DNA of 63,741 bases, the filler included, from Chrysochromulina tobinii (lineage: Eukaryota), in NCBI GenBank assembly GCA_001275005.1. It is 7 parts of 7 records of this genome, joined end to end, with 100 filler letters (N's around TTAATTAATTAA, not from the genome) between each part and the next. Parts side by side here need not be neighbours in the genome. Positions count along the whole stretch, not along the records: positions 1 to 13,939 come from JWZX01001419.1; 6 more parts are not named here. One strand, 5' to 3'. This document shows positions 1,025-49,726 of this stretch, piece by piece. Below the pieces are notes generated by a model, which was not told where the DNA came from, searched no databases, and saw nothing but the letters and a program-made list of their open reading frames with translations. Position numbers and translations under genes: made by a program. How positions within the stretch are numbered: position 1 is the first letter of the stretch; every line of letters begins with the position of its first letter.

Positions 1025-1269
1025 AGGGCAACACAGGCGTGCAGTCCAGTACTACGGCGCCGTAGAGAGCCCCAACGTGAGTGGGTGCAGTGCAGGGTGC
1101 AGTGCGAGACTGGTCGGGTACAGTCGCAGTCGCGTGGTGTCGCCAAGCCCAAGGGTCGTTGTGTCGGTTCAGGAGGTGTGCATGTGCGGGGGAGGTTGCG
1201 TCCTGGGTAGGCGTTCGAACTTCTCGACTTTTTTTCCTTTTTTGCAAAGGCTCCCCACACAGGAACGCC

Positions 1270-3752
1270 ATGCCCAACAAGAAGAAGCCGACTGCGCCGA
1301 GTCGGTGTGCGGCTATCCTCGAGGATGACTCCGAACTCGACGACGACAAGGCGAACCTGGTCGACGACAGCGCTCCGGCGTACGCCGCGTTGCAACTCGG
1401 CAATACTCATGCTCACCGAGCGCCGGCGGCTGGCGTCACGCAGCTGCGACACAATATTGAGCTCGTCTCGTACCTTGTCCAAAGGCTTCCGCTTGGACTG
1501 CGTCTTGCAATCTTTGGTGGCCTCGGCTCGTTCCTGCTTATTTTCTTCGTCATTTTTGCAGCTGGTCTGCACCAGTTCCAGGCACAAGCACAGTCACCAC
1601 AGCCTCATCGGAGTTCATCTCACACGACTGTCCCCGATGTGTCCGCCGTCGCTCAGCAACGCCCGGCGAATGCGGCAAGCCACCCTCAACAGTATGCTCA
1701 TTCGCACGGACAAGCTCCCTCCGACGCCGCGCTCGTCTTGAACTCAGTCGAGTTCATCGAAATCGATGAGCCCTTCACGCCGCCGCCTCCACCTCCGCCG
1801 CCTCCGCCTCCGCCGCCGCTGCCCCCGCCCCCACAGCCAACCAACGACTTTCCCATAGTCGCCGGTGGCGTCGCCGGCTGGAGCGAGGGGCATACGACCC
1901 GGTACTGGGACTGCTGCAAGCCCACCTGCTCGTGGGCGAATAACGTACCGCTCGGAGCGACGCCATCGCGCTTCTGTGCGCGCGACGGTACCGAAGCCGT
2001 CAGCTCGGCCACTGATCGCCTCCGATGACCTCCGATGGCCTCTGATGGCCTCTGATGGCCTCTGAAGTGATGGCCTCCGATGGCCTCTGATGGCCTCTGA
2101 AGTGATGGCCTCTGATTGCAGGTGCCGAAGCCTTCAGCTCGGCCATGCCCTCCGCATGCCAACCCAATAAAAACGAGCTCGTCGGCGTGGCATGTGCTTA
2201 CACATGTGCGGCCGACGCGCCGTGGCGAGACGCGACCGATCCGTTGCTCTCGTACGGCTATGCTGCAGTGCCGGACAAGCGAGCATGTGGAGCCTGCTTC
2301 GAGTTCGAGTTCAGCGGCTCTGGCTACTACGACGCGACGCATGTGCAGCCCGGGCAGCCTGGGCAGCCGCCGCCCGATGAAACACGCGACGTCGGTTCGA
2401 TGCGCCTCCTAGGCAAGCGGATGATCGTCCAGGTGATGGCCTCTGATGACCTCTCTCATTAGGCAAGCTGATGATCGTCCAGGTGATGGCCTCTGATGAC
2501 CTCTCTCATTAGGCCAGCTGATGATCGTCCAGGTGATGGCCTCTGATGACCTCTCTCATGGACTCTCTCATGGACTCTCTAATGGCCTCTGATGGCTTCA
2601 GATGGTTGCTGGTGCCTATCTGATTGCGCCCCTCATCAGGCGTCCAATACGGGCTCGGACGTGCATGCAGGCCAATTCGACCTCTTGGTGCCTGCAGGCG
2701 AGTGGCAATTTCCCTTGATCTCCCTTGATGGCCTCTATGCATGCGGGCCTATTCGACCTCTTGGTGCCTGCAGGCGGCGTGGGCATCTACGACGCGTGCT
2801 CGGAGCAATGGAGCGTGCATGAGCGCCGCGTGCACCTCGGGGAGCAGTACGCTGAGTGCCTCGGACTGCCTCTGATGGCGTCGGTCTTGCCTCTGATTGC
2901 CTCTGATGGAGTTGGTCTGATTGGTCATCTGCCTCTAACTTCCTCTTACTGCCTCTGATTGCCTCTGATTGCATCTGATTGCATCTGATTGCATCTGATT
3001 GCCTTGATGGCCTCTGATTGCAGGTATGGCGGCATCTTGAGCACTTGCACTAATCAGCTTCGTCATCAGGACTCGCCGCCGCACCCCGCGTGCGCGCCCA
3101 GCAGCGCCGAGCATCGCTACGACAACGAGGCGTGCCATAACACGATCAAGGCGTGCGTCGCGAGCAAGTGTGTAGAACTCTTTGCTCCTTCACACCTCGC
3201 GCGGCTCCGTGAGGGCTGTGAATGGTTTGCGAACTGGTGCGACTCGATCCGAAGATGCGCCACTGATGACCTCTGATGACATCTGATGACCTCTGCTGAC
3301 AATGACATCTGAGGCCCTCTGATGACCATCTGATGACCTCTGATAACATTTGATGACCTCTGATGACCTCTGATGACATCTGATGACCTCTGATGACATC
3401 TGATGGTCTCTAGTGGGCCTCTGATGGCCTCATCTGATGACCTCCGAGTGCCTCTGATGCAGGGCTCTGATGGCCTCTGATGGCCTCTTTTGTACCTCTG
3501 ATGTACCTCTGATGTCCTCTGAAGCTCTGATGTCCTCTGATTGGCCCTGATTGACCCTGATTGACCCTGATTACGACCTAATTGGTCCATCCTTGCAGGT
3601 TCGAGGCGGCTAACGATCCAAAGATGCGCTGGCGGCGCGTACACTGCCCTGTGGGGATCTTCGCGGGCGGCATCCAAGGGGATGGCACGACACCGGCAGC
3701 GGCCCTGCTAGGCACCGCATCGACGATCATTGGTGCGAACACTGGGCGGTGA
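1270..3752 (+). CDS. GH45 endoglucanase, type II membrane-anchored; 6 exons: 1270-1987, 2122-2432, 2640-2697, 2774-2846, 3024-3236, 3599-3752
   Basis: GH45 signature TTRYWDCCKPTCSW; spliced frame continues ACGACFEFEF...GKRMIVQ|ASNTGSD...QFDLLVPA|GGVG...GEQ|YGG...GCEWFANW|FEAANDPKMRWRRVHCP. N-terminal TM helix and poly-Pro linker. Four GT-AG introns and one GC-AG intron (2698-2773) keep the frame. Confidence 0.9.
2012..3590 (+). repeat. Degenerate ~10-bp satellite (G/A)CCTCTGAT(G/T)G filling GH45 introns
   Basis: Arrays at about 2012-2118, 2433-2625, 2866-3020 and 3263-3575. Confidence 0.95.
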
Positions 3753-4513
3753 TCTGAGTCCGGAAAACCCCCGGATCTGAGACTTCGTGGAGAGTATTAG
3801 TAGAGTGCGCTTCATTTTATCTCTAATCATCGATTCCCGCATCCCGTAGTGTGTAGAAATGTGTGCGAAAATCATTAGAGTCCGCCGCTGCGCGTACGCT
3901 GCGCGCTGGCCCGCTGTTCCGCTCGCGTCGGCGCGCTCCTGCCGTGCGCTGCTCGAAGTCTATGCCGTCGAAGAACGAAGAGGGCAAGAGCCGTGGAAGT
4001 TGACTCTTGACAAGTTTTAGAGGACTGTCCACAAAAAGTGAGCTGAAGCTGTAGCGGAAACAATGACCACGAGACGAGATCCTGCTCCTGGATGGTATGA
4101 TGTATAACGGAAGCTTGACGTTTCAAGTGTTCCCTCTGGACCTAAACCAATCGTCTGGACATTTTTGTCCCACCATCACCGAACCCTGCCCGTACCGAAC
4201 CGTGTAAGTATGCTGTTCTATCCTACGGAGAACTGTAGACCGCTGTTGTCGCTGTATACACTGGTATACACACCCCGTTCTGGAGGCGGAACACACTCAG
4301 TCGTAAAATCAGGGTAAGCGGTACCAAGTCGTGGTCCCTGTGCTGCTGGAGCCGCGTCGCGCTTGCGCCTTGACGTACCGCCTACACCCAGAGAGATCTT
4401 CATGGACCCAGAGTGGCAAGACGGGCAGAAACAGGCTGACACCTGATTCACCCTCATCTCGTAAATCGCCGCGACGCCATGCTCTGCCTGACCCCCGGTA
4501 CACCCATGCCTCC

Positions 4514-7500
4514 CTATTCCTCTCCGAATGCCTCGCCTCGGCTGATTGGGCCGAGCTCGTCGGCAAACTTGGCGCACAGACCCTTCCACGCGCCGAGGCT
4601 GAGCCCAAACAGATGGCAGTGCGTCACTGCCTCCACGTACCTCTCAGACAGCACGGGCGCTTGCGGCCCATTGAAGGCGAGCATCTCGACGCCCACGGCA
4701 CCGTGACGGCCGACGATGAAGCCACGGCTGACGGGTTGCAGCTTCTCAAGTGCCGCATCGGATGATGAGATGGTGTCTACCTTGCCATCGCTCTGGTCGG
4801 CCGCGCCATCCGCCACAGCCACTATAAGGGCGTCGTGAGCGTCCTTGATGAGCATGACGGACCGCCGCCGCTGATTCGGAGTCGCAGGCGGTGACTTGGA
4901 CGGATCCGTCTCGCTGTACCGGGAGTGTTTGGGCGGCTCGCGCCCGCGGTGGACCCGGAGCTTGCCCACATCGACCAGGTAGAGCTGGACGGCGGGTGCG
5001 CCCTTGGTGATGACGGTGTCACTCTCGAGGAAGAGTTCGGGTTGGAGTACGAGGCAGATCTCAACGAGGGGGAAGAAGGTGAGGTTTCCGAGCGCGGGCA
5101 CATTGAGCAGGTGGTCACGATGCATCCATAGACCGAGGTCGCGGAGTAAAAAGGGCGGGAGCTCCTGGAGGAGATGCGCGTGCGAGATGCGTGGGTTGGA
5201 CGAGAGCACCCGGTAGTACGAGGCGATGCGCTTGGCCAGCATGTGCGGCAGCGGGTGATGCCTCATGTAGTGCTGCAGGTAGTCGGTCTGTGTCTGGAGC
5301 AGTTCCTCCTGGACGTCGCCCAGGCGCGCATACGATGAGATGAGACCGATGAGGTATGCGAACATCGAGGCCGCCACGAGCGCGAGCACTATGCAGAAGC
5401 CGGTCTCCCACGCGTTCTGCGGCCGCACGTCGCCAGACCCGATGCTCGCCATGTGGAAGAGAACAAAGTGGGCAGCGCGAAGGTACGACGTCCAAATGGT
5501 CACATGCGCCCAGTCCGCACGCTTCCAGGCGATGTCCTCGGTCATCCAATTGCGCCCGAGGGCGGAGAGGGGGAGCGTGTACGCATCGAAGAGGAACCAG
5601 CAGGCGAAAACGTGCGCGACGTAGATCCAGAAGCTCCAGGCACTCAAGAGGCGCGCCTGAGCCTTCGAGAGCCGAAGTTGAGGAGGCAGCCAGCCAAAGG
5701 CCACGCGGAAGTGCTCGAGGCAGCGCGAGCAGCGCAGCAAGCGCGGTAGGCGCAGCAGTGCGACGGCGAGCAGGATCGTCTTCGTATCACTCGTCGTCGC
5801 AAACCCGATCGGCGCCAAGGCTTCATATGGCAGTGTGGCGAGCACGTCCAGGCGCAGCTTAGCCTGGACATAGTGCGTGCGGATTGCCGCGTACGTGAGC
5901 TCGGACTTCATGAACCCATCGCGCCCGCGAGGGAGGAAGGGGAAGCAGTTGGCACGCAGCACCGAGTCGCACAGCAGGATCGCGTCGCAGGTCCATTGCG
6001 TCGCGAGCGCGGCCCACGCGCTGTCGACGCTCACCGGGCTACGCGGCCCGAAGGCGGCGATGATGAAGGGGATCGAGATCGCGAGATAGAAGGAGATCGC
6101 TGTCATCAACAGTTCCCACAGCTGCCGCGGCAGCGTCGAGGGTGGATAGACGTGATGGTAAGTCGCCGGATGCCGAACAGGGAGGACCGCATCGGTGGCG
6201 GGGGGGGGCACTTGCTCCTTGCTCGCCCGCCGCGACGACGGGCGCGAGGCGGGCGCCTCAACTGTTGGCGCCCACGACGGCGCCTCGACTGCTGGCGGCC
6301 GAGCAGAGGGCTCCGCTGCCGTCTGAGCGATGAGCTCCGCTGACGACTGTGGGATGAGCTCGACCCCAACGGTGCTTACCATTTTAGGCAACTCGACCCC
6401 AGCAGCGCTGACCGTCGGCGCTGAGCTCTCGACGTCCTCGGCACTGACACTCACGACTTGCGATAAGGGCGCCGAGCTGGGCGACCGCGGCCGACGCTCA
6501 AGACGACGCTTCCGGATGGCGAGACGGCCCGAGATTTGGACGGGCAAGATGAGGCGGGGCGCCGTGTCGCGGGCCTCGTCTAATTGCCCTCGTGATTGCC
6601 CTCCGAATTGCCCTGATTGCCCTGATGGCCCCGGCATGGCCTCGTCCGGAACGGCTTCCCGCACGATGCGTTCGTTGATAAATCGCTGGTTCGCACCCAT
6701 GGTGCGCACGAGCGACTCGAGCTTGGCAAGATACGCCGCGTCGTGATGCAGCCCGAAGAGCGCGCACGCCGCGTCGAGCTGCCGGCGCGTCAGTTGGATG
6801 ACGTGCGCCCGCGTCACCGCGCGCACCGAGGCATTGCGCGCGGTGCCTTGGAGAAAGAAGGAAACTTCCCCGAGCACCGCGCCGCTGCTTACGGTGGCGA
6901 CCACCTGCGACTTGGTGTGCTCGATCTGCTGCTTGGTGAAGCTCATCCTCTCGCCAAGGAGGTCTTCGGCTTTCTTGAGGCGCTGGACAGGCGTCGAGCG
7001 CACCTTGAGGCGGCCGCCGGTCGTGACGATCTCGAAGATGCCCTCGACGACGACGTACATGTCATACGTGCCTGTGTCGCCCTCGATCATCAGTAGCTCA
7101 CCCGGCGTGATGACGAGATCGCTCATCTCCTTGGTGATGTACCCGAGGACGGCCCGCGGCAAAAGGTCAGCAAGCTTCGTCTTGAGAAGCAACTCAAGGC
7201 GGATCGCCTTCGACGTCTCGAGCTGGAGCTGCGGCGGCAGCTTGCTCAACACGGCGTGATTCTTGCCGACGCCTCGGTAACCCGACCAGATGAGGTAGCG
7301 GACGACGCGATCCTGGAGCGCCGGCGGGACGGCATGGCTCGCCTGGACACGTTAAGGGCGCTTATGGCGTTGAGGTTAAATAGGGGGGGTAATTAGCAGT
7401 GCAAGTAGGAGGGCAAATAGGGCAGTTTAGGCAATCAGAGATGCCCGGGATGGCTCACCATGACCTTCTTCGTGTTGGCTAGCACGCACTCTTCCTCATG

Positions 7501-10500
7501 CTCCTCGTTGCCAATCAACGAGATCACGCTGACAACCGTGCCCTGGACTGCAGATACCACGGTCGCCATAACGACGATCATGAAGACCATGGTGTACGTC
7601 TCATGCATCGTGGTGGGCGCGACGTCACCGATGACGACGAACAGGAACGTGCCAAATGCAATGTAGAAACCGCGCAACCATGCAAGCACCGCAAGCGGCT
7701 GGCATGTGGCCGCGCCCTCGATGACGACGGGGTCGGTCGCCCACCTGTGGGGAGGGGATAGGGGGGCGCCGTGATGAGCACTTGCATGCTGGGCTGCACA
7801 CAGTGGGGTCAGTCGCCCACCACGAGTACGCAGACCACGTGTGTTCGCTCGTGTTGGACACGAAGGTCGCCTGGAAGTCTCGCAAGCCGATGATCGCCCA
7901 GGCGCAGCCTGCAAGGTGCGAGGTCACGAAGATGGCGAGCAGCATTCGGCCGAGGCGCACGTGCTGAATGTCGGTGGACGGCGAGCGCTCGAGCAGCCAC
8001 GCCTCTAGGCTGTACAGGTGACGTGGCAAAAGGACGAGCAGCGGCAGCCGTACGGCCCAGACGATGCTCGCCGTCTGCGCCGCCGCGTCCGACACCGCGT
8101 CGCCGCCGCTGCGCACGCCGGCCACCGCGATGGAGAGGATGTCGAGGATGAGCACAGCGGCGAGGAAGAGCGACGCAAAGGGCAGTACGTTGCGTGCCGT
8201 GAGACGCGCCGTCGTGGGCTCATCGATCGCCCCCTCGGTGCCGGCCGCGCGTGCGCGCACAGTGCGTAGCTGCACCACGAGCAAGTCGACGCCGATGGCC
8301 ACGTCGGCGAGGAAGTCGAAGACGCAGAGGCCGACCGAGTCGAAGTACTGCTGTGCGCTGGGCGCACTAGGGTCACAACTCTTCACGCCCCACGGGCTGT
8401 GAACTGTGGGAACGCCGTTGGGCTGGGGGAATAACGGCCAAGGCTGGTAGCCCCAGGCCTCGTTGGCCTCAAGGCGGTCGCGGTACAAGGCAGGCGTCAG
8501 TTGGAGCGCTTCCGACCATTCGATCGGCAGAGCAAAGTTCTCGTGCAGGCTCGCCCGTAACGTGTCGCCGCACAGCCGATAGAGGAGCAGTATGAACAGC
8601 AGAAGCGACCAGGCGTGCGACGAGCCGAGCCTCTTGGTAGCGGCGTCGAGGATCCGGTGGCACTGGTGCAGTCGCGCCGCCATGACCTTGTCTTGGCCGA
8701 GGATCTCGACAGCCGTGATGGACGCGGCGTCCTCAGTGACGCCTGCGAGGACGCCCGTGCCTAAGACGTCTTCTTCGCCCTGCGTAGAAGACGTCTTGTT
8801 CTTGGGCGAAGTGGTGAGCTTGTGCATGACCGCCTGGTCGCGCTGGGAGTTCGCATGGATCGCCTGCTGGGCATTCGCCTTGAGCGTCGGACCAAATTCA
8901 GCGAAGCGGCTCAGGAGCTCGTTGAAGGGCTTGCGGCGCAGTCGCAGGCACTCACACATCTGGACGGCGATGATGTCGTACCGATGTGTGACGCCCAACA
9001 AGAACTCGTCCGCGCCGATGCTGCCGCCCTCGTAGATCGTCTCTAGCAGGATTGTATTCGCGAGCGCATCCGCCATCACATCGGGCGTCGCTTTTCGCGG
9101 GTTGGACGGGTTGCTCATCGCCCTGCGAAGGAAGGTCATTCCCGTGGAGCGTGGATCTCGAACGTGTTTGATGCTCGGGGCACTGGAGCTGATGCTTGGT
9201 GAGCGTGTGGAGCTCGCCCGACCGGTCACCTCACTACTCTCACTACCCTCATCGCTGGACGCATCGGACATTCGGTCCATCTCATCCTCGGTGGGTTTTG
9301 CGCCCGTGCGCAAGGCGATCTTACCACGCCAAGGATTCGTGCCGAGTGCTGTGCCGAGAGCACCTGGCCGTGGGGGGAGGGGCGTAAGGGTGCCACCGGG
9401 CGAGTAGGGGCAGCGGTCGCCGAAGAGCTCGATCTCTTTCTCGATCTCGATCTCTTTGTCGAGCGAGGATCGAGCCGTCGGGGGCATTGGGGTGAAGGAG
9501 AGGGGGAGAGCGAACTGGTCCATCCTTGCTTCGACAGTAGAGCTGCGAGGTGATGTGTCGAGCTTCACCGATGCAAGAGAGAGATCTACCAGATAGCTAG
9601 TGGCTGGCCGTTCCGGCTGCCCTTCCGGTTCAGTGGCTGGGGGTCCGTGCGGCTCGGCCGAACTGGCACGCTGCTTCCTGTGCTGCGCCGACTGCGATGC
9701 GGCAGCGGCGTCCCCTGTGCCTGCGCTGTGGACGAGCTTGATCCGACGATGCGCCTCACCTCGCTTGAGAATGATGATGCCGGTCGTCACGTCGCCGGTC
9801 TGCGCGATGAATGAGTTTGGGACGACGAGCTCGACGTGCAGCAGCGCACACACCTCGAGCAGAAACGCCTCCGTACATTCGCGGAAGCACGAGACCGAGC
9901 GGACCTGATGAGGGAGGCCATCAAGGAGGTACTCAGTGGTATTCAGAGCAACCAGAGGTCATCCATGGCAATCAATGGTACTCAGAGGCAATCAGTCGTG
10001 CTCAGAGGCTCATCACGGCCATCACCACCGCCATCATCACAAGACCGCCATCATCACAAGACCGCCATCATCACGGCCATCATCACAAGACCGCCATCAC
10101 CACAGGCCCGAGCGAGCATACCATGCCAAGGTAACGATGCAATCATTCGCAATCATTCGCAGTCGAAAGCAATCAGTGAGCGCGGACCATGCCAAGGTAC
10201 AGATGCGCCGAGATGAGCACGTGCAGCGAAGGCGGGAGCGAATGAAGCAGCTTCGTCTCCGTGCGAACGCGCTCGCCGAGCTCGGCCAGCAAGATGATCT
10301 GCGAGCGCAGCGGTCCGGCGAGGCGATTACGGTGCACAAAGTCGTGTACGGCCGTTGCCTGCACGGTGCGTGCGGTCATCGCATCCATGAGGAGCGACAT
10401 GATCGCGGCGATGATCGCCGGGTAGAGCATACTGCCTGGAGCCTCTAGGATCAACATGGCCCAAGTCTCGGGGATCGTTCTGGGCACGATGTCGCCAAAG

Positions 10501-13500
10501 CCAATGGGACTCATCGCGACGGTCATCCAGTAGACCGAGCGCACGTACGCGTGGAAGGGGCTCATCTCGTCATCGGGAGATGCAATCTCGTCATCTCGTA
10601 TGAGCTCGCGCAGGTACACCGCGTCCCATGTGAGCCACGAGCCGCCCGTCCCGAAGTCGGACGCGCCAGCGAATGCATTGTCGCTCCGGACGAGGCCAAG
10701 CCACAGAAAGAGGCACCCGCTCCAGTGTAACCAAATGAGCCAGAAGAGGATCAGGTAGATCATGCGACGGATATGTAAGGACGGTGAGAGTGAGGGACGT
10801 TTCTGATGAATGTGGAAAAAGATCTCGCCAATCCAACTGCTAGTGCAGCGGAGGCGCACCAGCCGCGGCAGCATGAGGAACGGCGTTCCCGAAGGCGAAG
10901 GGTTCCACACGTAGCCTCCCCACTCCCATGGCAGGCAACACAGGACGTCGACGGCGATCCCAAGCCAGGCAAACCTGGAGCGGTCGCTCCGTCTCGATTC
11001 CTCGCGCTGGAGCTTCCCTGGGGGCATGAGCCAGTTGAGCTCGAGCGCGGCGACACACGCGGGGTTGTGCTGGCTCCACAGCTGCAGCCAAAGGACGACA
11101 TACGTCACTACGTCGGCGACCAGCCACCATGGGTTGAGGCCGGCGCGTCCCTCAAATGCGCAGCGGAGAGGGAGCACGAGGGCGAGGTAGCCGGCGGTGA
11201 GCAAGCGCAGCGTGAGCCAAAGGAATGGCAGCGTCTCTCCGCGCGACGCCCGGCTGTCCACTGCCGGCGCCTGGCTCATGATCCCCTTCGACGCCTGCAC
11301 GCCCATGACGGCGCGTTCTGCCGAGCGGCCGACGAAGAATCCGGTTGCAGACTGAGCCGACTGCTCGACGGCATGCTCACCGCCGTGATTGGTCGCCGCG
11401 CCACCGGCCATGACGCTGTCCACAGAGTGCCCAAGCTTAGCATGCATGTCAATCTCTGTCGACGGCGCGGGCTCCGTAGGAGGGGGCTCCGACTCGGGCG
11501 GTGTGGAGGGGGGGGAGGGAGGTGGCTCGCTGATGCCACCCACATCGCTGCCGGCACCCACAGACCACTGAACGAGCCGGGGTGCCGGCTCACTTGCCCG
11601 GAGCGGTGCTGCGTCAGGCATTGTGGGTGATAAGAAGGGCGATTGCGAGGAGGCAGCAGCTTCGCGCGCCGCAAGCAGCTGCACCACGTCGTTGCAGTGC
11701 AAGGCATGTACCTCCACGAAAGTCGCCGCTCGAAAGTCGGTGCGCGCTTGAACCACGCGCGTCGCAGCGGAAGGTAGGATGCAGTCACCCTCGTCGTATG
11801 CGCGGATCTGGCGGAGGCGATTGGCCGCGCGCTTTCGCCAGCGAGCGCTTAACGAATTCTCGGACAACACGCTGCGCTTCTGCGAACCCTCGGCCAAGGG
11901 GGAACCAGCGGCGCCACTCGAATTCTCCCTGACGGAGGCGTCTTCACATTCTTCCATCATTCCAAACTCAAGGACCATCCCTCGGACGAGCAGCCACGCG
12001 GTCGAGCACGTCTGCGGGACGATCGTGAGGGTGCCATCATCGGCGACGGACGAGCACTTGAGCAGATGCTCGTCCGTCGTGTAGATCACGGGGTAGAGCA
12101 GCCCGGCGAGGGCCGCGATCGTGTCCGCGTCCAAGCTGGCAAACGAGGGGATCGAGCGGAGCAGCTTGTGATTGAGTGCGAAGCGTACCTCGGAGCGGAG
12201 GGATGCAGGCAGCCCCGCAAAGAAGGTGCTCTCGTCGGCTCCTCTCAGGAAGAGCCATTGGTACTGCAGGTACTCCTGGATGCGCCTCGCGAGCTCCGGG
12301 GGGATCTTGTGTCTCTTGATGAAGGCGTCGGCACGCTCAACGCGCGCGAGCCACGTCTCCTTGAGCATGTTTGAGCCCTTGAGAGCCGGAATCAGTAGGC
12401 CGATCGAAGTACAGGCCGCAACCGTTGCCACAATTGAGGTGCAGACGTAGAAGATCAACTCTTCCAGCTTGGTGGGCACTATGTCACCGAAGCCGACGGT
12501 CGTAATCGTATTGGTTGCCCAGTGCAGCGCTCGCGCATAGTAGATCCAGGGATCTAACGGCCACCGAGACTCGAGCGCGAGCAAGTGAGACTAGGGAGAC
12601 TCAATCTGGGGAGACTCGATCTGGGGAGACTCGATCTGGGGAGACTCGATCTGGGGAGACTTGAGCGCGAGCACGCGAGTTGAGCAGCCAAGCACTCGGG
12701 CGCTGCGGCGGGCGCGGTGTCGTGCGTCAGCCATCCGGCGGCGGCGCACCCGACGGAGGCGGAGCGCGCTCAGCATCCCGACTTCTACACGTTTGAGGCA
12801 CCCACGAGCTGCCTAAAGCGACAAAGTCGACGTCCTGCCAGCCCGGCTCGTCGTCGACCCAGGTCCCCACCGCCTGCCATCCGCACGCAAACAGATGCAA
12901 CAGCAGGATGTACATGGGGAAGTAGGAAGTGATTCGAGCCCAGCCAACGGTGAAGCCCGCCTTGAAGCGCAGAAACCAGTAGGTCCCGCCAACCGGATTG
13001 CCTCGGGTGTTGGCGAGGCGCAGCAGGCGCAGAAGCGAGACATTCGTCCAGGTGCGCAGCGATGCATTGCTGAGCAGAAAGACCAGGTCGATCGGCATCC
13101 ACGCCAGTAGCCGGCGAAGGATCTCGAGGATGGCGATGCAGAGGCGGAAGGAGCGCCAGAACGGGGTGCCCTCCCCCTCGCCGCTAGCCTCCTCCTCTGC
13201 CTGCCTGACCGCTCCGATCGTCCGGTGCTCGACGAGCTCGGTCGGCGGAAGAAGCTGCCCCTGGGAGCGGGCGGCGCGGCGTCGAACATGCTCGCGCACC
13301 AGCGGCGTGATGCGGAGTGCGAGGAAAGCGACGTCCACGAGGTAGAGAGAGACGCAGTAGTTAGCAAGCTCTGGATACTGCAACGCCGGCCGGTCTGCGT
13401 ACTCGCCCCAGGTGGTCGACGTGAAACATGCGCGGAAGGGGAGCAGAAAGCCGTGCAAGATGCCGAAGACGCCGCTGCCCAAGTCGAACAAGGATTCTCT

Positions 13501-32214: not shown

Positions 32215-34188
32215 TCAACCGTCATGCCCTCGCGTGCACCGCCAAAGTGGGCTTACCGCCAAGCGCTTCGCCTCCAACCTTTCTGCCGCAGCTCTGACGC
32301 TCCAGCCCCTCCAAAGCTCCTCCTCCAATGCCTCTGACGCCGCCTTCTCGGCCTCCACCGCGGCCTCCTCAGCCTCCACCGCGGCTTCCTCGGCCTCCAC
32401 CGCGGCTTCCTCGGCCTCCACCTCGGCCGCGGCCGCGGCCCTCTCAGCCACAGCGACATCGACCGCCGCGGCCGCCGCGGCCTCTGCGGCCTCTGCGGCC
32501 TCCGCAGCCGCCTCAGCAGCGACCCTCTCGGCTGCTGCTGCCTCAGCAACAGCCTCAGCTGCCTCGACCGCCTCGGCTGCCTCGGCCACTGCGGCCGCCG
32601 CGGCCGCCGCAACCGCCGCAACCGCCTCGGCAGCGACCTTTTCGGCGGCCGCTGCCTCAGCAACAGCCTCAGCCGCCGTGGCAGCCTCCGCTGCTGCTGC
32701 TGCCTCTCTCGCCGCTTGCTCGCCCTCCACTTGTTTGGCCACCAGTCTCTCCACCTCGGCCGTCGATGCCGCCTCAGCAGCCGCCGCTGCCTCGGCCGCT
32801 GCGACCGCCCAAGTAGCCACCGCCGCCTCGGCTGACGTCGTGGCCGTCGCCTCTGCCACCTCTGCCGCCTCTGCTGCGGCTTCGACCGCCGCCTCTGTCG
32901 CCGCCTCCAGCGCGACGCGTGCATCAGAGAGCTCTCCTCGCTCGACACGGCGCTCCTTGTCGAAGGCCGTAGGCTGCGGTGTGAACAAAACGGCCGCCGC
33001 CGGTGCCTCGGCTTGCCCCTGATTGCCTCCATCTGATTGCCTCTGATTGCCTCTGATTGTCTCTGACGTGGTGGAGGCCGCCGCCGGTGCCTCGGCTACC
33101 TCTGCCTCCGCCACGTCGGCCGTCTGGTTGCCTCTGATTGCCTCCGCCACGTCGGCGACCGCCTTTGCAGCAGCCTCGGCCGCCGCAGCCTCGGCCGCCG
33201 CAGCCTCGGCCGCCGCAGCCTCGGCCGTTGCTATGGCTATCACCGCCCCCTCCGCAAACTCTCTCTCGAAAGAAGCCGACTTGTCTTCGGTCTGCGCCTG
33301 CACGAACGTCTCCTCGGTCGCGTTGCCCCGAGCAATCAACGCCGCTACGACCGCCAACCCGCCACCTCGCGCGAGCAGCGCCACCTCTTCCTCTCTGTTG
33401 GCCCTGGCAGCCGCCGCCTCCGCAACCGCCTTGGCCGCTGCTTCCTTCGCGGCGGCTTTGGCCTTTGCATCTGCGGCTGCCGCCTGGGCCGCTGCCCGAA
33501 CCTCCGCTTCGCGCCGGCGCCGTGGCGCCGCCCTTTTCCCTCCGATCGTGACCGCATTCTCCGCACCAGCGCTCGACGCATCGCTTGACGACCGGACCAG
33601 TGCCGGAATCCCTACGAGCGCGCCTGTCGCGCTCAGTCCCACGATCCCAAAGGCCAACGCGCGCCGGTCCGGCGACGCGATATTGTCAGCGTTTGACGAC
33701 GCAACCTTCGAGTTCGCATCGGATGCTGGCCCACCAAAAAGTGCCTGGAGGGAGAAGGATGGCGGTGGCGGTGGCGGCGGCGGCAGCTTGGGCGGCGGCA
33801 GTGCAAACAGAGACATGAGGTCTAAAGGCTTGGGTGCGGGCGGTGGCGGCGGCGGCAGCTTGGGCGGCGGCAGTGCAAACAGAGACATGAGGTCAAACTG
33901 TTTGGGTGCGGGCGGGGGCGGCGGTGGCTTGGTCCGACCAGAGAAGAAGGATGAGAGGTCGAATGCGAGCCCATCGGAGACGCCTTCATCACTCTCTCCG
34001 AGCCCATCGGAGACGTCTTCATCACTCTCTCCAGCGACTACTGCTCGTTTGAGATGTTCTTTACTGTCTCCAGCAGCGAGAGCCTCGTACTCCGTCATGC
34101 AAGGGTTGGAACGCGCACCTAAGCGGATAACTTTATGAGACACGAGTAGCAGGCTACTGTGGGCCAGAGTCAACAAGAACGCGACCAT
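32215..34188 (-). CDS. Ala/Glu-rich low-complexity protein with signal-like N-terminus, Pro repeats and hydrophobic segments
   Basis: 657-aa ORF with ~72-bp coding duplications and a long EAAA helical region. Confidence 0.6.
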   Translation of the reverse strand: MVAFLLTLAHSSLLLVSHKVIRLGARSNPCMTEYEALAAGDSKEHLKRAVVAGESDEDVSDGLGESDEGVSDGLAFDLSSFFSGRTKPPPPPPAPKQFDLMSLFALPPPKLPPPPPPAPKPLDLMSLFALPPPKLPPPPPPPPSFSLQALFGGPASDANSKVASSNADNIASPDRRALAFGIVGLSATGALVGIPALVRSSSDASSAGAENAVTIGGKRAAPRRRREAEVRAAAQAAAADAKAKAAAKEAAAKAVAEAAAARANREEEVALLARGGGLAVVAALIARGNATEETFVQAQTEDKSASFEREFAEGAVIAIATAEAAAAEAAAAEAAAAEAAAKAVADVAEAIRGNQTADVAEAEVAEAPAAASTTSETIRGNQRQSDGGNQGQAEAPAAAVLFTPQPTAFDKERRVERGELSDARVALEAATEAAVEAAAEAAEVAEATATTSAEAAVATWAVAAAEAAAAAEAASTAEVERLVAKQVEGEQAAREAAAAAEAATAAEAVAEAAAAEKVAAEAVAAVAAAAAAAVAEAAEAVEAAEAVAEAAAAERVAAEAAAEAAEAAEAAAAAAVDVAVAERAAAAAEVEAEEAAVEAEEAAVEAEEAAVEAEKAASEALEEELWRGWSVRAAAERLEAKRLAVSPLWRCTRGHDG

Positions 34189-34493
34189 TGTTTGGGATCG
34201 AGATTATTGACGAATTTGGAAAGATAATTGACTCATCAAGTCGTGCTAATACCAAATTCGGTCAGCAGTAGACCGAGTCGCGGCGGGTAAGTGAGTCACA
34301 CGGAAATCACCCGCGAAGCGCACTGCGGCCGTGTGTCACACCTTCCAAGCCGAGAAATGAGTGGCCGCTCACTGTGTCGCCATTCGCTTTACGCTTATAC
34401 AAAGTCCAAGCCCATTCAGTACGCCCCCTCGACCCGCGCCATCTTTCAGCCTGCCGCCCTCAGCGCTTGACCTTACCCTCATTTTGACCCTTG

Positions 34494-39000: not shown

Positions 39001-40465
39001 GGACATGCCGGAAGAAGCTTTCCTGGAGCCCCAGGACGCCGCGGCCCTCTTCAGGCGGCCGCGGCGCGGCGTTCGTGGCGCTCGTGTCCTCAGCTACTGC
39101 TGGCGCATGCCTGGCATGCCCGACCCCGACGGCTGCACGCTTGAAAAGATCCGCGGCTACATGAACCTGGAGAGGGGCAGACAAGGCGGCGAGTACGGTC
39201 TTTTTGTGGACGTTGCTTGCCTGCCGCAGAACTATGCGTTGCCGTCGTGGCACGCCATGGAGGCGATCACGAAGCGCTTCGGCACCGAGGCGGACATTGG
39301 CCCACTCACCGTGCTCAAGTTTGAATTGGAGCACGTCGCCACGGAGGAAGAGGCGCAGGTTTGCGTCGACAAGGTCGTCTCCCTATGCGAGCAACAGCGC
39401 TGGGAGCTGGCCCCCCTGGCGGACTTTGAGAGCCTCGGCCTGAGCTCGCGCGGCCACGTCAGTGTGCTCGTCCAAGAGCGTTACATCATGGGCGTGAGCC
39501 GCTTCGACAAGGGAGCCTCTCCCGAAGGCTACGTGCGCTTCCGCACGCCTCACGACGCGAACGCGGCACGGCACCATCCAGACTTCATGTTCGGCGGCAA
39601 GGAGCCAGAGCTGATGGGCGAGCACGTCTTCGAGAATGAGCTCAAGTTCAAGCGCGGCCTCTCCGTCATGGGCTGCCTCTACGCGTCCGCCACAGGTACC
39701 TGTGTGCTGCAGCTCAAGGCACCGCCAGGCGAGCTCAATGGTGACGACGTCGCGCCGAGCGAGCTCGTCTCCGAGCGCATGGGGACCGTCTTCGTCGTGT
39801 CGCTCAGAGACAAGTCGCTCGATGAGCCAGCACGCCGTCGCTGGCTCGAGGAGCTGCACGAGGAGCTGGGTGACGGCGTAATGGCCTGCGAGAAGGGGCC
39901 CTGGGGTGAGGTAGTGGTGCGTGTTTATGGCGAGACGGCGGCACGCGCCGTGCGCACGCTGAACGAGGGCGGCTACCCGCTTCGTCGCAAGGATCGCGTG
40001 GTGTACCCAGTGTACAACTTGCGGCCGTACGGCTCGCGCGGGTGGCCGACCTTTGAGACGTCCGCTGCCTCGATTGTGCTCGCGCACCACACGCAGCGAA
40101 CGCCTCCCGTCGCGCAGGCGGAGGAGAGCGGTCCAAAGCTCATCAACATCGACCTGATCGACGCCCCACGTGTGGTGGAGGTCGTGCAGTCACCGGAGCG
40201 CCACCTCCTGCAGTGCAAGAAGAAACTGCTCTCGAAGCAAATCTTTTTCACCGGGAAAGGCGACCAGAAGGATGTCGTCCAGCTGCTCTTTGATTTTGAG
40301 GACTCAGTCTCGGTAGAGGTTGATCAGAGGCGCGCCAGACACTCGAAGTTCTCAACAGAGGACCTCGAGCACGAGCATGCCGCGAGGCAGGAGTATGCCG
40401 AGAGGCTGGGCGATGCGCGCAGGACGCGATCCCGCAAGCTGCTGCAGCGCCTCACCTTCCTCTAG
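36073..40465 (+). CDS. LRR receptor-like multipass membrane protein with cytoplasmic UIM and HET/TIR-like domain (5'-truncated)
   Basis: LRRNT cap (LYEATGGDTW...NW...C..WFGVHC), plant-type LRRs (LQHLDLSGNALFGALP), 8-9 hydrophobic helices, UIM EEFDLALALSASLAE, HET-like motifs VLSYCW/HPDP-like PDPDG, FVDVACLPQ, MGCLYA, YGSRGWPTFE. Confidence 0.8.
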
Positions 40466-40626
40466 GAGCCGATTCCTCACCTTCCTCTAGGAGCCGATGC
40501 CTTGCCTACCTCTAGGAGCCGATGCCTTGCCTTCCTCTAGGAGCCGATGCCTTGCCTTCCTCTAGGAGCCGATGCCTTGCCTTCCTCTAGGAGCCGATGC
40601 CTTGCCTACCTCTAGGAGCCGATGCC
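40451..40626. repeat. 25-bp tandem repeat x7 seeded on the stop codon of the LRR-HET gene
   Basis: CTTGCCTTCCTCTAGGAGCCGATGC units; the first copy contains the TAG stop. Confidence 0.95.
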
Positions 40627-41082
40627 CGTCCTCCACGTCTTCGGGCGCGTTGCCCTCTTGCCTTCCCGGGCCGACGCCTGAATGCATAGAATGGTTCTTG
40701 GTGGCGGATGACGTGCGTGAGTCCCGAGCGCCCTGGGCTACATTCGGAATGGGATTGGGACCGGATGCAAAGGTGTTGGCAGGGTGCGAAGGTGTGTGTG
40801 CAGCAGCCGCTCCATCGCATGGAACATGGGATTCTGGTCGCCGTTGTCCGACTCCGAGCCCAGGCGACGACATGGGCGACGATGGTCGATGTCGGTGAGT
40901 CGCAGTCGGTCCGGTCGCCGTGGAGCCCGCCCGCGAGGGCGACCTGGTGCGTGAGCTCCGAGCCGGTAAGGACCTCTCGGAACGGGAATCGCTAGGGGGC
41001 ATTTGCGCCGTACGGCCTTGTAGCGGGCGTTATGTTCATAGGGAGCATGCACCGTGGAGTTTTGTAACGCCACAACCACCGC

Positions 41083-44229: not shown

Positions 44230-44653
44230 CGTTCGTCGCAATTGAGAGCGGGTTGAGCGTCAGAGCGAGCAGCAGCAGCAACGTCTTCAATCGGGTGGCG
44301 CCATGGATTGCGCCTTGATACTCTTTGAAGACGAACAGCCCGTACAGCATGCCAGTGACGCCAGCGGCACAGCCGAAGCCGAAGGCGACCGGGCTCGAGA
44401 TCCCCGCGTGCAGCTCGGCAAAGTAGCACAGGTAGCCCACTGCGATGCACACGCCCGCGCTACTAGTCCAGACCACCTGACGCCGAGTGAGCCCGAGCCC
44501 TGATGTTGGTGATGAGGCTTGAGCGGGATGCAATATGAATATCAGAGGCCATCAGAGGCAATCAGCGAACCATCTGACGCCGAGTGAGCCCGCGGACTTG
44601 GGCGCCGTGTCGAGCGAGTTCGGTCTCCTCTTGGAAGAGACACCCATACGCCT
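44230..44653 (-). pseudogene. Fragment of a DMT/TMEM144-like membrane transporter with one intron (44477-44570)
   Basis: AG...VGYLCYF...PVAFGFG...GMLYGLFVFKEYQG resembles the DMT C-terminus. No upstream part or own stop is evident. Confidence 0.45.
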
Positions 44654-47069: not shown

Positions 47070-49726
47070 TCACTTCTTCCCAAAGTTCTTCCCAAAGCTG
47101 ATCACGTCCTGCTCCGCTGGGTGCTCCGCCTTCGGCAGCTTGGCAGCGCCCTTGCCCCCGAACGTGCCCGCTGCCTTCTTTGTGGTGACCGTAGGCGCCC
47201 GCGACTGCGCGGGCGTCGTGCTGGTCGACGGCACCGTCACCGTCGCAGGCGGAGGAGGCTTGAGCTTCGGAGTGACGCACCGTGTGGGGGCAGCCTTGGT
47301 GGCGCTCGACACGGCGCTCGTGCTCCCGCTGCTGCTGCCGCCGCCGCTTGCCGCCGCCGGCTTCGTCACAGCCGGCTTCGTCACAGCCGTCACAGCCGGC
47401 TTCGTCACAGCCGCCGGCTTCGTCACAGCCGGCTTCGTCACAGCCGTCACAGCCGGCTTCGTCACAGCCAACGCTGCCATACCGCCCGCCGCGGCGCCCT
47501 TGTCCGGCACAGCAGTAGCACCGCATCTCTCCTTTGACCTCACCTCCAGAGGACGCTCACGACTGGACTCGCCTCCAGCCGTCAAAGGTTTAGTCAAAGG
47601 AAGTTCCTCATCTTCGCTCACGCTGTCCATCTGAGCCTCCCTCATTAGGGAGGACGCCAGCTTGCAAGTACGGCCAGCTGTGCCTCGAGCCGCCTTGAGG
47701 GACTTCCCCACAGCCGCCTTGAGAGACTTCCCCACAGCCCGTCCCCCCACGACCCCAACGGCTCCCCCCCCCATCGAGGAGCCACGTGGCTTTGGCGCCC
47801 TTCGCGCCAAACTGAGCGCTTCGAGCCGCTCCTCCAAACGCGTCGTCTTGAGCGCTCGAAAGTAGCCGCGGCATGCATGCGCGCAGCCGAGGAAGACCAT
47901 CAACACGAAGCCGATCGCGAGCATCAGTGGCCCCGTGTCCGTCGGCTGGGCACGCCCGGGACGACGGCCCCCCAACACCGGTGCGCTGGCGTTGGCGGCG
48001 GCGGCGCATGCTGGGCAGATGCTGAGGACGTCGGTGGAAGAGAGCGAGGCGAGCGCTGCAAGCTTGCTGGCCTCTGCTGAGCCTTCGAGCGGCAGCGACC
48101 AGTTCTTACTCACCTGTGATCCGGGGGGGCAATCAGAGGTCATCAGAGGTCACTCACCTGTGATCCGGGGGGGCAACAAGACGACAGCCGAAGGGCCTTC
48201 AGAGGCCATCAGAGGCCATTAGAGGTCATTTGCGAATCTGCTGTCATCAGCGGCACGCACAAGTCCGCCAGTATCATCGCTATCTGGGTTGAGTGCGAAG
48301 TAGAAGATGCCAAAGCCGCGCTGCTTGAGGTACGGGATCGCCCAGTCTTGCCACTGACGATCCTGATCGGTGTATCTCCCCCCGATCTCCCCGAGCACGA
48401 TTGGTCTGTGGGTGAGCTGCTGCGCGAACGCAAAGTGCGCCTCCCACACCTGATGAGGGACGCCATCAGGGTGAGCTGCTGCGCGAACGCAAAGTACGCC
48501 GCCCACACCTGATGAGGGTCGCTATCAGGGGAGAGGGAACTCAGCGGCCATCGGTGCGCCACCCTGACCTCGGGCATATTGGCGGGAAAGCGCTGGTCAT
48601 CAAAGTAATGCTGCTGGTACACTGACGGGCCGTACACATGGGGCGAGTAGACGAGCTTCTCCTGGTTGGACAGGTGCACCTGTGACAGGGGTGAGTGGGG
48701 GTGAGTGGGGGTCCAGGCTCATCACCTGCTGAAGCCGCGTGCAGCGTCTAAAGGGAGTAGAGGATGGCAGCGCGTCTAAGTAAGGCGAATTAGAGGCGCA
48801 TTATAGAGGCTCATTCGAGGCTCATTAGAAGCTCATTAGAGGCTCATTCAAGAGGCGCATCACCTGCTGCACACGCGCTCCGATGAGGTTCTCGCCCCAC
48901 CAGATGCCCGCTCCTGGGTCGTCGCCATTAGGTGCGCCCGGGTTATATCCGACCCCCTCGACAAAGATCAACCATCGAGGGCATTCACGCAGGACGTGGT
49001 CGCCGAGGTCCTCCGCACCCAAATTCCAATCGATCGCCAACCCTTTGGCCCACGACGCGCCGTGCGGCTCGTTGGTGATGCTGCGTACGCGCGGCGCAAG
49101 CGCGCCCAGGACAGCACGCCAGACCACGTGGGCTCAGCGCGAGAAAGCAAGTGGGGAGTGGCCTCGAGGGCTCTGAGGGCGCTCGAGATTCGTTCGAGAT
49201 GGCGGCTCGCGCACTCGGCGGCGATCACGTTCCACTCGCCACAGAGGACGGCCGCGAGCTTGCTCCAAGACGTCTTGACACGCGACACGGGCCAGCCGAT
49301 GTCGTCGTCGTACCAGAGCCCTTTGCCAGGCCACGCGTCATGCCTCAGCCGGTGCGCGGCCACCATGACAAGCATGCCGCGCTTGGCGGCCTCGCGGCAA
49401 AGGATGGTGAACATCTCGAGGTAGCGCGTCTGGAAGAATAACGGGTCCTCCGACTCGGCGGTGTGCACGATATCGTCCTTCTCGATGAACTCGTGCGCAA
49501 ACAGCAGCCGGATCGCGTTGAACTTGTGCCGCTGCAGGAAGTCGAGGTAGAAGCCGACCGGGTGCCTGTCGAGGCCTCCGGGCGGACCGCAATACGTTTC
49601 GCTGCCGAACCAATTGATGCCCTTGATGTGGAAGGCGTTGTCGCCGCTGACGGAGGCGTACAGCGTGCCGTCGCGGCCGCTGAGCTCGAAGAGGTCAGTG
49701 GCGCTGCGGCTCGCGCCAATGCCCAT
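47070..49726 (-). CDS. GH5 endoglucanase/cellulase with C-terminal TM and basic repeat tail; exons 49726-49215, 49080-48864, 48679-48569, 48449-48261, 48113-47070
   Basis: IKGINWFGSET, FNAIRL, AAD|ITNEPHG (acid/base E), VEGV, WWGENL, VYSPHVYGPSV, LGEIGG (nucleophile E), NPDSDDTGGL|VSKNW; GT-AG introns keep the frame. Confidence 0.9.

Follow-up and report, generated by a model that had tools for sequence, protein, structure and literature searches.

Exon copies at the ends of introns in Chrysochromulina tobinii and a candidate route of intron gain

The origin of new spliceosomal introns is a long-standing open question, and the cases caught in the act are few: introners, the neointrons of Daphnia and a handful of tandem duplications. 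This paper deals with a stretch of 63,741 nucleotides (nt) from the haptophyte alga Chrysochromulina tobinii (assembly GCA_001275005.1; seven parts joined by filler letters), hereafter called the window, in which introns of a GH45 endoglucanase gene, of a channel gene and of a GH5-like gene hold copies of the adjacent exon or of its splice junction. The original prediction, made from the sequence, had been that such introns arise recently and in unrelated genes by tandem duplication across an AG|GT proto-splice site.

According to the portions of the literature drawn upon here, introners bring along one of their splice sites and recruit the other from a flanking repeat of 3-9 base pairs (bp), and a family from Chrysochromulina sp. 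has a 4-bp repeat and carries its own 5' site (PMC9860276). The dinoflagellate elements are described with 3-8-nt repeats, and the exon downstream of them begins with GH (bioRxiv 10.1101/2020.10.14.339549). The neointrons of Daphnia pulex are attributed, in the available text of PMC4202315, to the repair of staggered double-strand breaks, and repeats of the exon end of 4-12 bp (33 cases) lie at the intron's opposite end. In addition, a survey across the intron classes has read direct repeats of 4-30 bp on or close to intron borders as insertion footprints (PMC11782384, in the part used here).

The introns with exon copies in the window fall into two classes. In class 1, whose members are I1, I3 and I5 of GH45, IA and IB of the channel and, weakly, IC, the plan is A-B-A: a copy of 7-39 nt of the adjacent exon (A) and unrelated filler (B) abut the genuine exon copy. 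In class 2, which comprises I2 of GH45, intron b of GH5 (GH5-b) and the copy number within I3, a junction is plainly duplicated in tandem within an existing intron. The preferred explanation for class 1, to which a probability of about 0.45 is given, is that these introns go back to staggered breaks in exons, in the repair of which foreign filler came to lie between the filled-in copies of the overhangs. The features are collected in Table 1.

Table 1. Features of the window that bear on the introns with exon copies, followed by the genes and their introns
Feature	Position	Strand	Observation
A1 of I1, copy of exon 2 start, giving the GT donor	1987..2011	+	23/25 to 2121-2145; 22/24 from GT
Filler B of I1, CTGATGrCCT array with higher-order 25/35-nt repeats	2012..2120	+	109 nt ending TTGCA; dissimilar to flanks
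A2 of I1, functional copy, last acceptor G into exon 2 start	2121..2145	+	First G completes acceptor (TTGCAG)
A of I3, exon 3 end including CAG|GCG, last 39 nt	2662..2700	+	37/39 to 2738-2776; 34/36 up to splice site
A1 of I5, degraded copy of exon 6 start (3598-3629) with 7-nt deletion	3236..3260	+	6/7 + 15/16
Three tandem units of 50 nt, each last 23 nt of exon 2 + first 27 nt of I2	2410..2559	+	49/50 between neighbours
Pure 59-nt tandem duplication in GH5-b	48411..48528	-	55/59; last 19 nt of intron b, acceptor, first 40 nt of exon
Transporter fragment, direct repeat of 22-27 nt flanking ~75-nt insert with array sequence	44472..44598	-	23/27; CAG|GT (CAG|AT in copy 1)
Two A-B-A structures, gene strand not settled	32992..33156	.	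22/22 around 62-nt array (period 84); 18/18 around 18 nt (period 36)
GH45 endoglucanase gene, 6 exons	1081..3752	+	Pfam PF02015 on exons 1+2; exon translations colinear with ortholog L006
GH45 intron 1 (I1)	1988..2121	+	134 nt, GT-AG, phase 1; frames; L006 contiguous at site
GH45 intron 2 (I2)	2433..2639	+	207 nt, GT-AG, phase 0; RNA joint skipping 207 nt
GH45 intron 3 (I3)	2698..2773	+	76 nt, GC-AG, phase 1; RNA joint skipping 76 nt
GH45 intron 4 (I4)	2847..3023	+	177 nt, GT-AG, phase 2; array intron
GH45 intron 5 (I5)	3237..3598	+	362 nt, GT-AG, phase 2; L006 contiguous at site
Cyclic-nucleotide-gated-type channel gene	~4517-12590	-	Two ion-transport domains + cyclic-nucleotide-binding domains; only three introns
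Channel intron IA	7745..7820	-	76 nt, GT-AG; stop-free spliced model
Channel intron IB	7343..7458	-	116 nt; stop-free spliced model
Channel intron IC	9905..10187	-	283 nt; loose ends of X13 RNA contigs
GH5-like gene	~48000-49300	-	Typical GH5 motifs in spliced frame
GH5 intron a	48680..48863	-	184 nt
GH5 intron b	48450..48568	-	Ends in array-type 3' end
GH5 intron c	48114..48260	-	147 nt

In I1, I5, IA, IB and IC, A opens with G|GT and B closes with CAG. Copy A is the source of the GT or GC donor, the donor being the exon copy itself in four to five introns, and B, usually an array of the high-copy 10-nt motif CTGATGrCCT, provides the acceptor. The filler of I5 is an array of ~340 nt, and its two copies read GGTGCGA versus GGTTCGA and then, past the indel of 7 nt, CGATCCGAAGATGCGC versus CGATCCAAAGATGCGC. 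The first 16 nt of IA copy the next exon at 15/16 (16/17 for 7821 against 7745), and in IB GTGAGCCATcCCG stands against GCGAGCCATgCCG of the next exon (11/13; 12/14 for 7459 against 7343); in neither of these two is the filler an array. In IC, GTCCGC recurs at the start of the next exon (7/7 for 10188 against 9905). I3 is the mirror image of the others: its A supplies the first three nucleotides (GCG) of the GCGAGT donor, a filler of 37 nt follows, and A' closes the intron, the copy giving the AG instead of the donor. One splice site therefore comes from the insert and the other from the flank repeat in I1, I5, IA, IB and IC, and the roles are reversed in I3.

The flank repeats are 7, 14, 17, 25, ~31 and 39 nt long. 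The period of the repeat equals the length of the intron in I1 (134 nt), I3 (76 nt), IA (76 nt) and IB (116 nt), and in I5 it is 362 nt and then 369 nt past the indel; because of this equality splicing restores the original reading frame. The A copies are 86-100% identical overall and 92-95% identical where the fillers were compared with the flanks. Furthermore, all 11 downstream exons open with GT or GC, as donors do.

The introns of GH45 were set from the reading frames and from colinearity with the ortholog, a 72% identical locus (L006); coding extends upstream of 1081 in an open frame, the start codon not being fixed. RNA bears out the predicted junctions in part. A contig of RNA run X14 joins 2432 to 2640, which confirms I2 and the use of the first of its three donors (2433), and the same contig skips 76 nt within the I3 repeat, which confirms I3. 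For IC the spliced junction is marked by loose ends of X13 contigs at 9905 and 10182. No spliced joint of GH45 was present in RNA runs X11-X13, which mostly matched arrays, and no RNA joint is listed for IA or IB among the contigs of X11-X14, so that these two introns rest on the stop-free model of 2533 amino acids: the channel with IA, IB and IC removed is one frame of 2533 codons with 0 stops. The GH5 frame is continuous once introns a, b and c are removed. As to the GC donor of I3, GC donors are reported as frequent in the haptophyte Emiliania huxleyi, where they make up 56% of 241 curated junctions (PMC4028052, in the part available).

Chance was assessed on 11 hand-curated introns (five of GH45, three of the channel and three of GH5) from these three genes in one window of 64 kb, with 110 cross-intron pairs, that is, one intron against the exon of another, as the control. 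The curated set was used since an automatic register-locked scan for GT/GC...AG was swamped by self-matches of the arrays and its seed filter missed I1; clusters of CTGAT-like motifs, six in the window, were too few for an annotation-free statistic. When the start of each intron is compared in register and ungapped with the start of its own downstream exon, the scores are 18 for I1 (22/24), 13 for IA (15/16), 7 for IB (11/13) and 6 for IC (6/6), against a maximum of 5 across the cross pairs. The comparison of exon end with intron end gives 30 for I3 (34/36), against a cross-pair maximum of 6. With gapped local alignment and tests of internal junctions, nine of the 11 introns (I1, I2, I3, I5, IA, IC and GH5-a, -b and -c) lie above all 110 cross pairs in at least one class; the local score of I5, for example, is 13 with a null maximum of 9. 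IB is at the 95th percentile in the local-alignment test, and I4 has no significant exon copy (GTACGC versus GTATGG, 4/6 at positions 1-6). In addition, at positions 3-8 the own pairs match in 39/66, the cross-pair mean being 1.95 of 6, and 0 of 20000 permutations reach the observed sum.

The repeats that had been pointed out in GH45, the channel, GH5 and the transporter fragment are all where they were said to be, and the degree of identity of each is as given above or in Table 1; what gives way is the mechanism of tandem duplication across AG|GT. The fillers of I1, I3, I5 and IA have no similarity to their flanks, 8/8 comparisons being within the shuffled range (p 0.13-0.98), therefore foreign filler was inserted between the copies instead of a plain tandem duplication, and class 1 looks like insertion with a long and variable target-site duplication. 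A pure tandem duplication, with the arrays arising later inside it, would account for the agreement of period and intron length and for CAG|GY in I3 and in the transporter repeat, and it has precedents in Drosophila (PMC2891723, in the part used here). It is improbable, however, because the interiors of four introns show no detectable likeness to their supposed source at a time when the A copies remain 92-95% identical, because A alone (17-39 nt) is too short for an intron, and because A has no terminal AG in I1, I5, IA and IB. AG|GY lies inside the duplicated piece only in I3 (CAG|GCG) and in the transporter repeat (CAG|GT), and in I1, I5, IA, IB and IC there is merely G|GY at the start of that piece. 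With the introns described from tandem duplication in a few Drosophila cases (PMC2891723, as far as used here) the present ones share that duplicated exon gives splice sites, that the length equals the period and that premature stops arise if the intron is not spliced, but here foreign filler lies between the copies and the interior is not derived from the exon.

Arrays of the 10-nt motif occur at 2007-2120, 2852-3021 and 3263-3582 of the window and elsewhere; the motif is common to GH45, GH5, the transporter and the locus near 33000, as a tandem motif without defined element ends. Branch points follow the consensus CTRAY, with which CTGAT in the 10-nt unit agrees. TGA comes once in each unit, which closes all three frames within 30 nt, and the antisense strand of the array holds no stop codon; the array is in sense orientation in 4/4 genes. 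Its copy number is very high, array bins having a depth of ~60,000-96,000 in DNA run X9 versus ~100-250 in unique bins.

On the preferred explanation, two nicks 7-40 nt apart would have been made in an exon, the filling-in of both overhangs would have given the two A copies, and filler, probably copied or captured from existing arrays, would have been joined between them. Such filler would bring the branch-point-like CTGAT, a pyrimidine run, AG, and TGA in each 10 nt with stops in three frames. In coding sequence only those insertions would survive that the spliceosome removes exactly, and such survival would explain the G|GY at the start or AG|GY at the end of A, the AG at the end of B and the sense orientation of the arrays. 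Later, the two A copies may have allowed unequal exchange or slippage to more tandem units (three in I2, 1.5-4.5 in I3 and two in GH5-b), and the arrays may have expanded by the same means. Since local duplication is found outside introns too, the underlying mutational process would be general and the birth of introns a selected by-product of it. A broader form of this idea is put forward tentatively, the odds being against it: an active, transposase-free intron factory, in which cassettes of the 10-nt repeat with branch site, acceptor and stops would be inserted into staggered breaks of 7-40 nt, their source being DNA or excised intron RNA, the duplicated exon edge would become the donor, growth would proceed by copying of junctions, and GH45 would have gained all five introns after the split from its 72% identical ortholog.

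The main competitor is a mobile, introner-like element built from the 10-nt array and having a conserved 3' end (...CCTCATCAG or ...TTGCAG), which would carry the acceptor and take the donor from the target-site duplication. Target-primed reverse transcription of array RNA, e.g., excised intron RNA, with 5' truncation would fit the variable length of duplication and insert. The very high copy of the array speaks for such an element, as do arrays of unrelated contigs that end in CCTCATCAG|G and then pass into unique sequence, and I1 and I4, whose final 21 nt (2103-2123 and 3005-3025; family D6) are identical, being TGATGGCCTCTGATTGCAG plus the GT of the next exon. Moreover, introners are known to carry the 3' site with the 5' site from the flank repeat (PMC9860276 and bioRxiv 10.1101/2020.10.14.339549, in the portions available), and they are said in the part of PMC12130899 used here to stem from many kinds of transposons, including those without long terminal repeats and unknown types. 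This account is nevertheless rather unlikely. Flank repeats of 7-39 nt are far beyond the 3-9 bp given for introners in the available text of PMC9860276, and such variable lengths are a poor fit to the fixed cut of a transposase. There were no clear terminal inverted repeats to be seen, the sole terminal symmetry, judged by eye, being a weak one of 6 nt (CTGATG ... CATCAG), and among the 111 open reading frames of the window there was no Pfam hit to a transposase or reverse transcriptase. In IA and IB the filler is no array and, apart from a single hit of 19/21, has no match elsewhere in the window; short fillers look like sequence lying some tens of bases off, and A-B-A and tandem structures with unrelated fillers also occur outside introns. 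Replitrons were considered as the vector and rejected, no comparable flank repeats being described in the available text of PMC10288648.

Several points weigh against the repair of a staggered break as the origin. Many unrelated DNA and RNA contigs leave the array through ...CCTCATCAG|G into unique sequence (loose ends), and I2, IC and GH5-b end likewise; a 3' end conserved in this way is no less compatible with a mobile element than with random filler. The base of the argument is a small set of hand-curated introns from one window, and when the five strong introns are removed, the remaining six are not significant at positions 3-8 (p 0.07-0.30). The differences in the number of I3 units could reflect loops of the assembler, the inner units being identical to each other. 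The ortholog L006 may be a transcript contig, so that its missing introns are suggestive only. A further GH45 locus, 44% identical, was dropped as evidence on introns; its N-termini are lipoprotein-like, it has a second, converging frame and it is free of introns, so that it probably represents a GH45 from a bacterium and is uninformative in this respect.

The present case appears to work like the Daphnia type and like the acceptor-carrying introners, and to differ in the length and variability of the repeats, the array filler and the visible secondary growth. As in Daphnia (all of this from the portion of PMC4202315 used here), an unrelated insert lies between the repeats, and the young introns there hold further internal direct repeats, read as repeated staggered breaks. 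The repeats are 4-12 bp there and 7-39 nt here, the insert here consists for the most part of a single species-specific tandem array of 10-nt units, by which the acceptor is brought, and presence or absence among individuals has been shown for Daphnia only. With introners, in the accounts cited above and to the extent that they were available, the introns I1, I5, IA and IB have in common that the flank repeat yields the donor and the insert the acceptor (I3 being reversed); in addition, the downstream exons open with donor-like GY, as in dinoflagellates, and the inserted material is of high copy. On the other hand, the flank repeats are fixed at 3-9 bp there but long and variable here, no inverted termini and no family of elements identical from end to end are seen here, and some fillers are not arrays. 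The survey of PMC11782384, in the part used here, is alike in its direct repeats at or near intron borders, but their mean is 11.4 bp and old introns of all classes are mixed, whereas those of the window are long, near-identical and locked in register.

The footprints are unusually long and fresh. Single introns reveal target, insert and recruited splice site down to each base, and the birth of an intron (A-B-A) is separable from its subsequent growth (tandem copies). Should the pattern extend to the whole genome, the alga would be tractable for the rate of intron birth, for the choice between break repair and a mobile repeat, and for why a 10-nt motif fills introns. Gene finders are warned that duplicated donors and acceptors lie within these introns.

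As regards age, the ortholog L006 is uninterrupted at all five GH45 intron sites and retains a single G|GTGCCGAA at the site of I1. It has an intron of its own of 292 nt (GTAGGC...TTGGCAG; positions 342-633 of L006) where the window has none; this retained intron makes clear that L006 and the window differ in at least one intron position. Third codon positions of the window and L006 agree in 47% over 81 sites, and the A copies are 86-100% identical, therefore the duplications are far younger than the split from the L006 lineage; in this, and in their recurrence in unrelated genes, the original prediction was right. Both differences between A1 and A2 of I1, judged against L006, are derived in the intronic copy A1. 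The absence of the introns from an ortholog, which had been expected of recent gains, is found at the five sites, but its value is reduced: L006 is possibly a transcript, and intron retention is reported as frequent in E. huxleyi (PMC4028052, in the part available), so that missing introns are not proof of absence.

The tandem copies of class 2 are told apart from the origin of introns as follows. I2 and GH5-b are plain tandem duplications of a junction. GH5-a has an internal copy of exon end and donor (15/17), GH5-c has acceptor and exon start (TTGCCCCCCCGGATCACAGGTGAGT) twice (25/25) with a filler of 19 nt between them, which matches the array ~50-70 nt upstream at 17/19 as counted by eye, and IC has an internal copy of exon end and donor (10140-10120 versus 10206-10186, 19/21); in GH5-a, GH5-c and the inner copy of IC the copied junction is accompanied by filler. 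All of these lie inside existing introns and are consequently uninformative on the origin of those introns, so that, among the cases that had been counted as intron origin, I2, GH5-a, -b and -c and the inner copy of IC are secondary duplications. The copies could on this ground be secondary everywhere, i.e., the introns could be old and the exon copies due to slippage or unequal exchange in repeat-rich introns. Class 2, with the internal copies just described, is well explained in this way; the I3 unit number of 1.5-4.5 among assemblies and the minisatellite-like duplications, which are common across the window, point in the same direction. For class 1 it is distinctly unlikely, because the copy in I1, I5, IA and IB starts exactly at the donor and is the donor, so that a precise replacement of the 5' end would be needed in four to five introns, because the period equals the intron length, and because L006, with the reservation on the type of its contig, is without all five introns.

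A scan of metagenome contigs with exon 2 gave L001-L005, five loci that belong to the same organism and come from other assemblies. L002, L004 and L005 are 100% identical to the window over 1001-2776 and 99.87% over 2662-4200, with two mismatches in the overlap of the repeat, and I1, I2, I4 and I5 are identical in all of them. The sole structural difference is in the number of the 76-nt units of I3, which is 1.5 in the window, 2.5 in L004, 3.5 in L005 and 4.5 in L002; the contigs of L001 and L003 stop inside this repeat. These breaks and differing numbers would be expected if the copies were an artefact of assembly. Such an artefact is very improbable as their general cause, since the copies differ by point changes and an indel, the four other GH45 introns are unchanged among these assemblies, a contig of DNA run X9 covers IB with no difference, and the RNA joints fit the gene models. 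The I3 of the other assemblies, moreover, has a junction from the copy of the second type back into the filler; the window version lacks it, and the reads from those samples must contain it.

Local repeats outside the curated introns are numerous in the window, with A-B-A structures at 949, 12566, 32992 and 33103. By a rough count, about 9-10 loci of duplication lie in the ~2.9 kb of curated introns with 45-nt flanks versus 15-18 in the ~60.8 kb of the rest, an excess of about twelve-fold in introns; the figure is uncertain, as the rest may contain introns that escaped annotation. Around the structures near 33000 the sequence is of low complexity and open on both strands. A search for relatives of the minus-strand frame of 662 amino acids at 32218-34203 gave none, and base composition by codon position did not settle the strand. 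Their periods (84 and 36) are multiples of three, and the periods linked to introns (134, 76, 362, 116, 283, 59, 44, 97 and 50) are not; this contrast would fit selection on a process at the DNA level that is blind to strand. A 72-nt tandem duplication at 33767-33894 (56/56) would repeat PPPPPPAPKxxDLMSLFALPPPKL in frame on the minus strand. A minisatellite with a unit of 25 nt at 40455-40630 and repeats of 15-33 nt at 47356-47430 both lie outside the curated introns. At the 5' end of the channel gene (12566-12673, minus strand) an 18-nt repeat (17/18) flanks four units of 15 nt (CCCAGATCGAGTCTC); unit and repeat have similar ends. This structure is again A-B-A, with another array of local origin.

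Further observations concern the fillers. The one match of the IA filler (7766-7786) is to 10205-10225 on the minus strand, in the exon just upstream of IC (19/21, E ~0.04 within the window), and could be a templated insertion or chance. A 20-mer of the array was absent from the viral_contigs collection. The intron of L006 holds repeats of 10-11 nt resembling CCCTTGGC and, 36 nt ahead of the downstream exon (measured from start to start), an exact 8-nt copy of the beginning of that exon. Literature searches brought up no paper that deals with intron repeats of 10 nt in haptophytes. For Emiliania, introns with tandem repeats have been noted.

The window has a guanine + cytosine content of ~62%, long exons and few introns, and its seryl-tRNA synthetase frame has E. 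huxleyi (66%) and Prymnesium sp. (65%) as the best named relatives. Freshwater metatranscriptome contigs of X13 and X14 match the channel gene (4200-12400) at two levels, ~98-99% and ~90-94%, which suggests the same species and a close relative in these samples.

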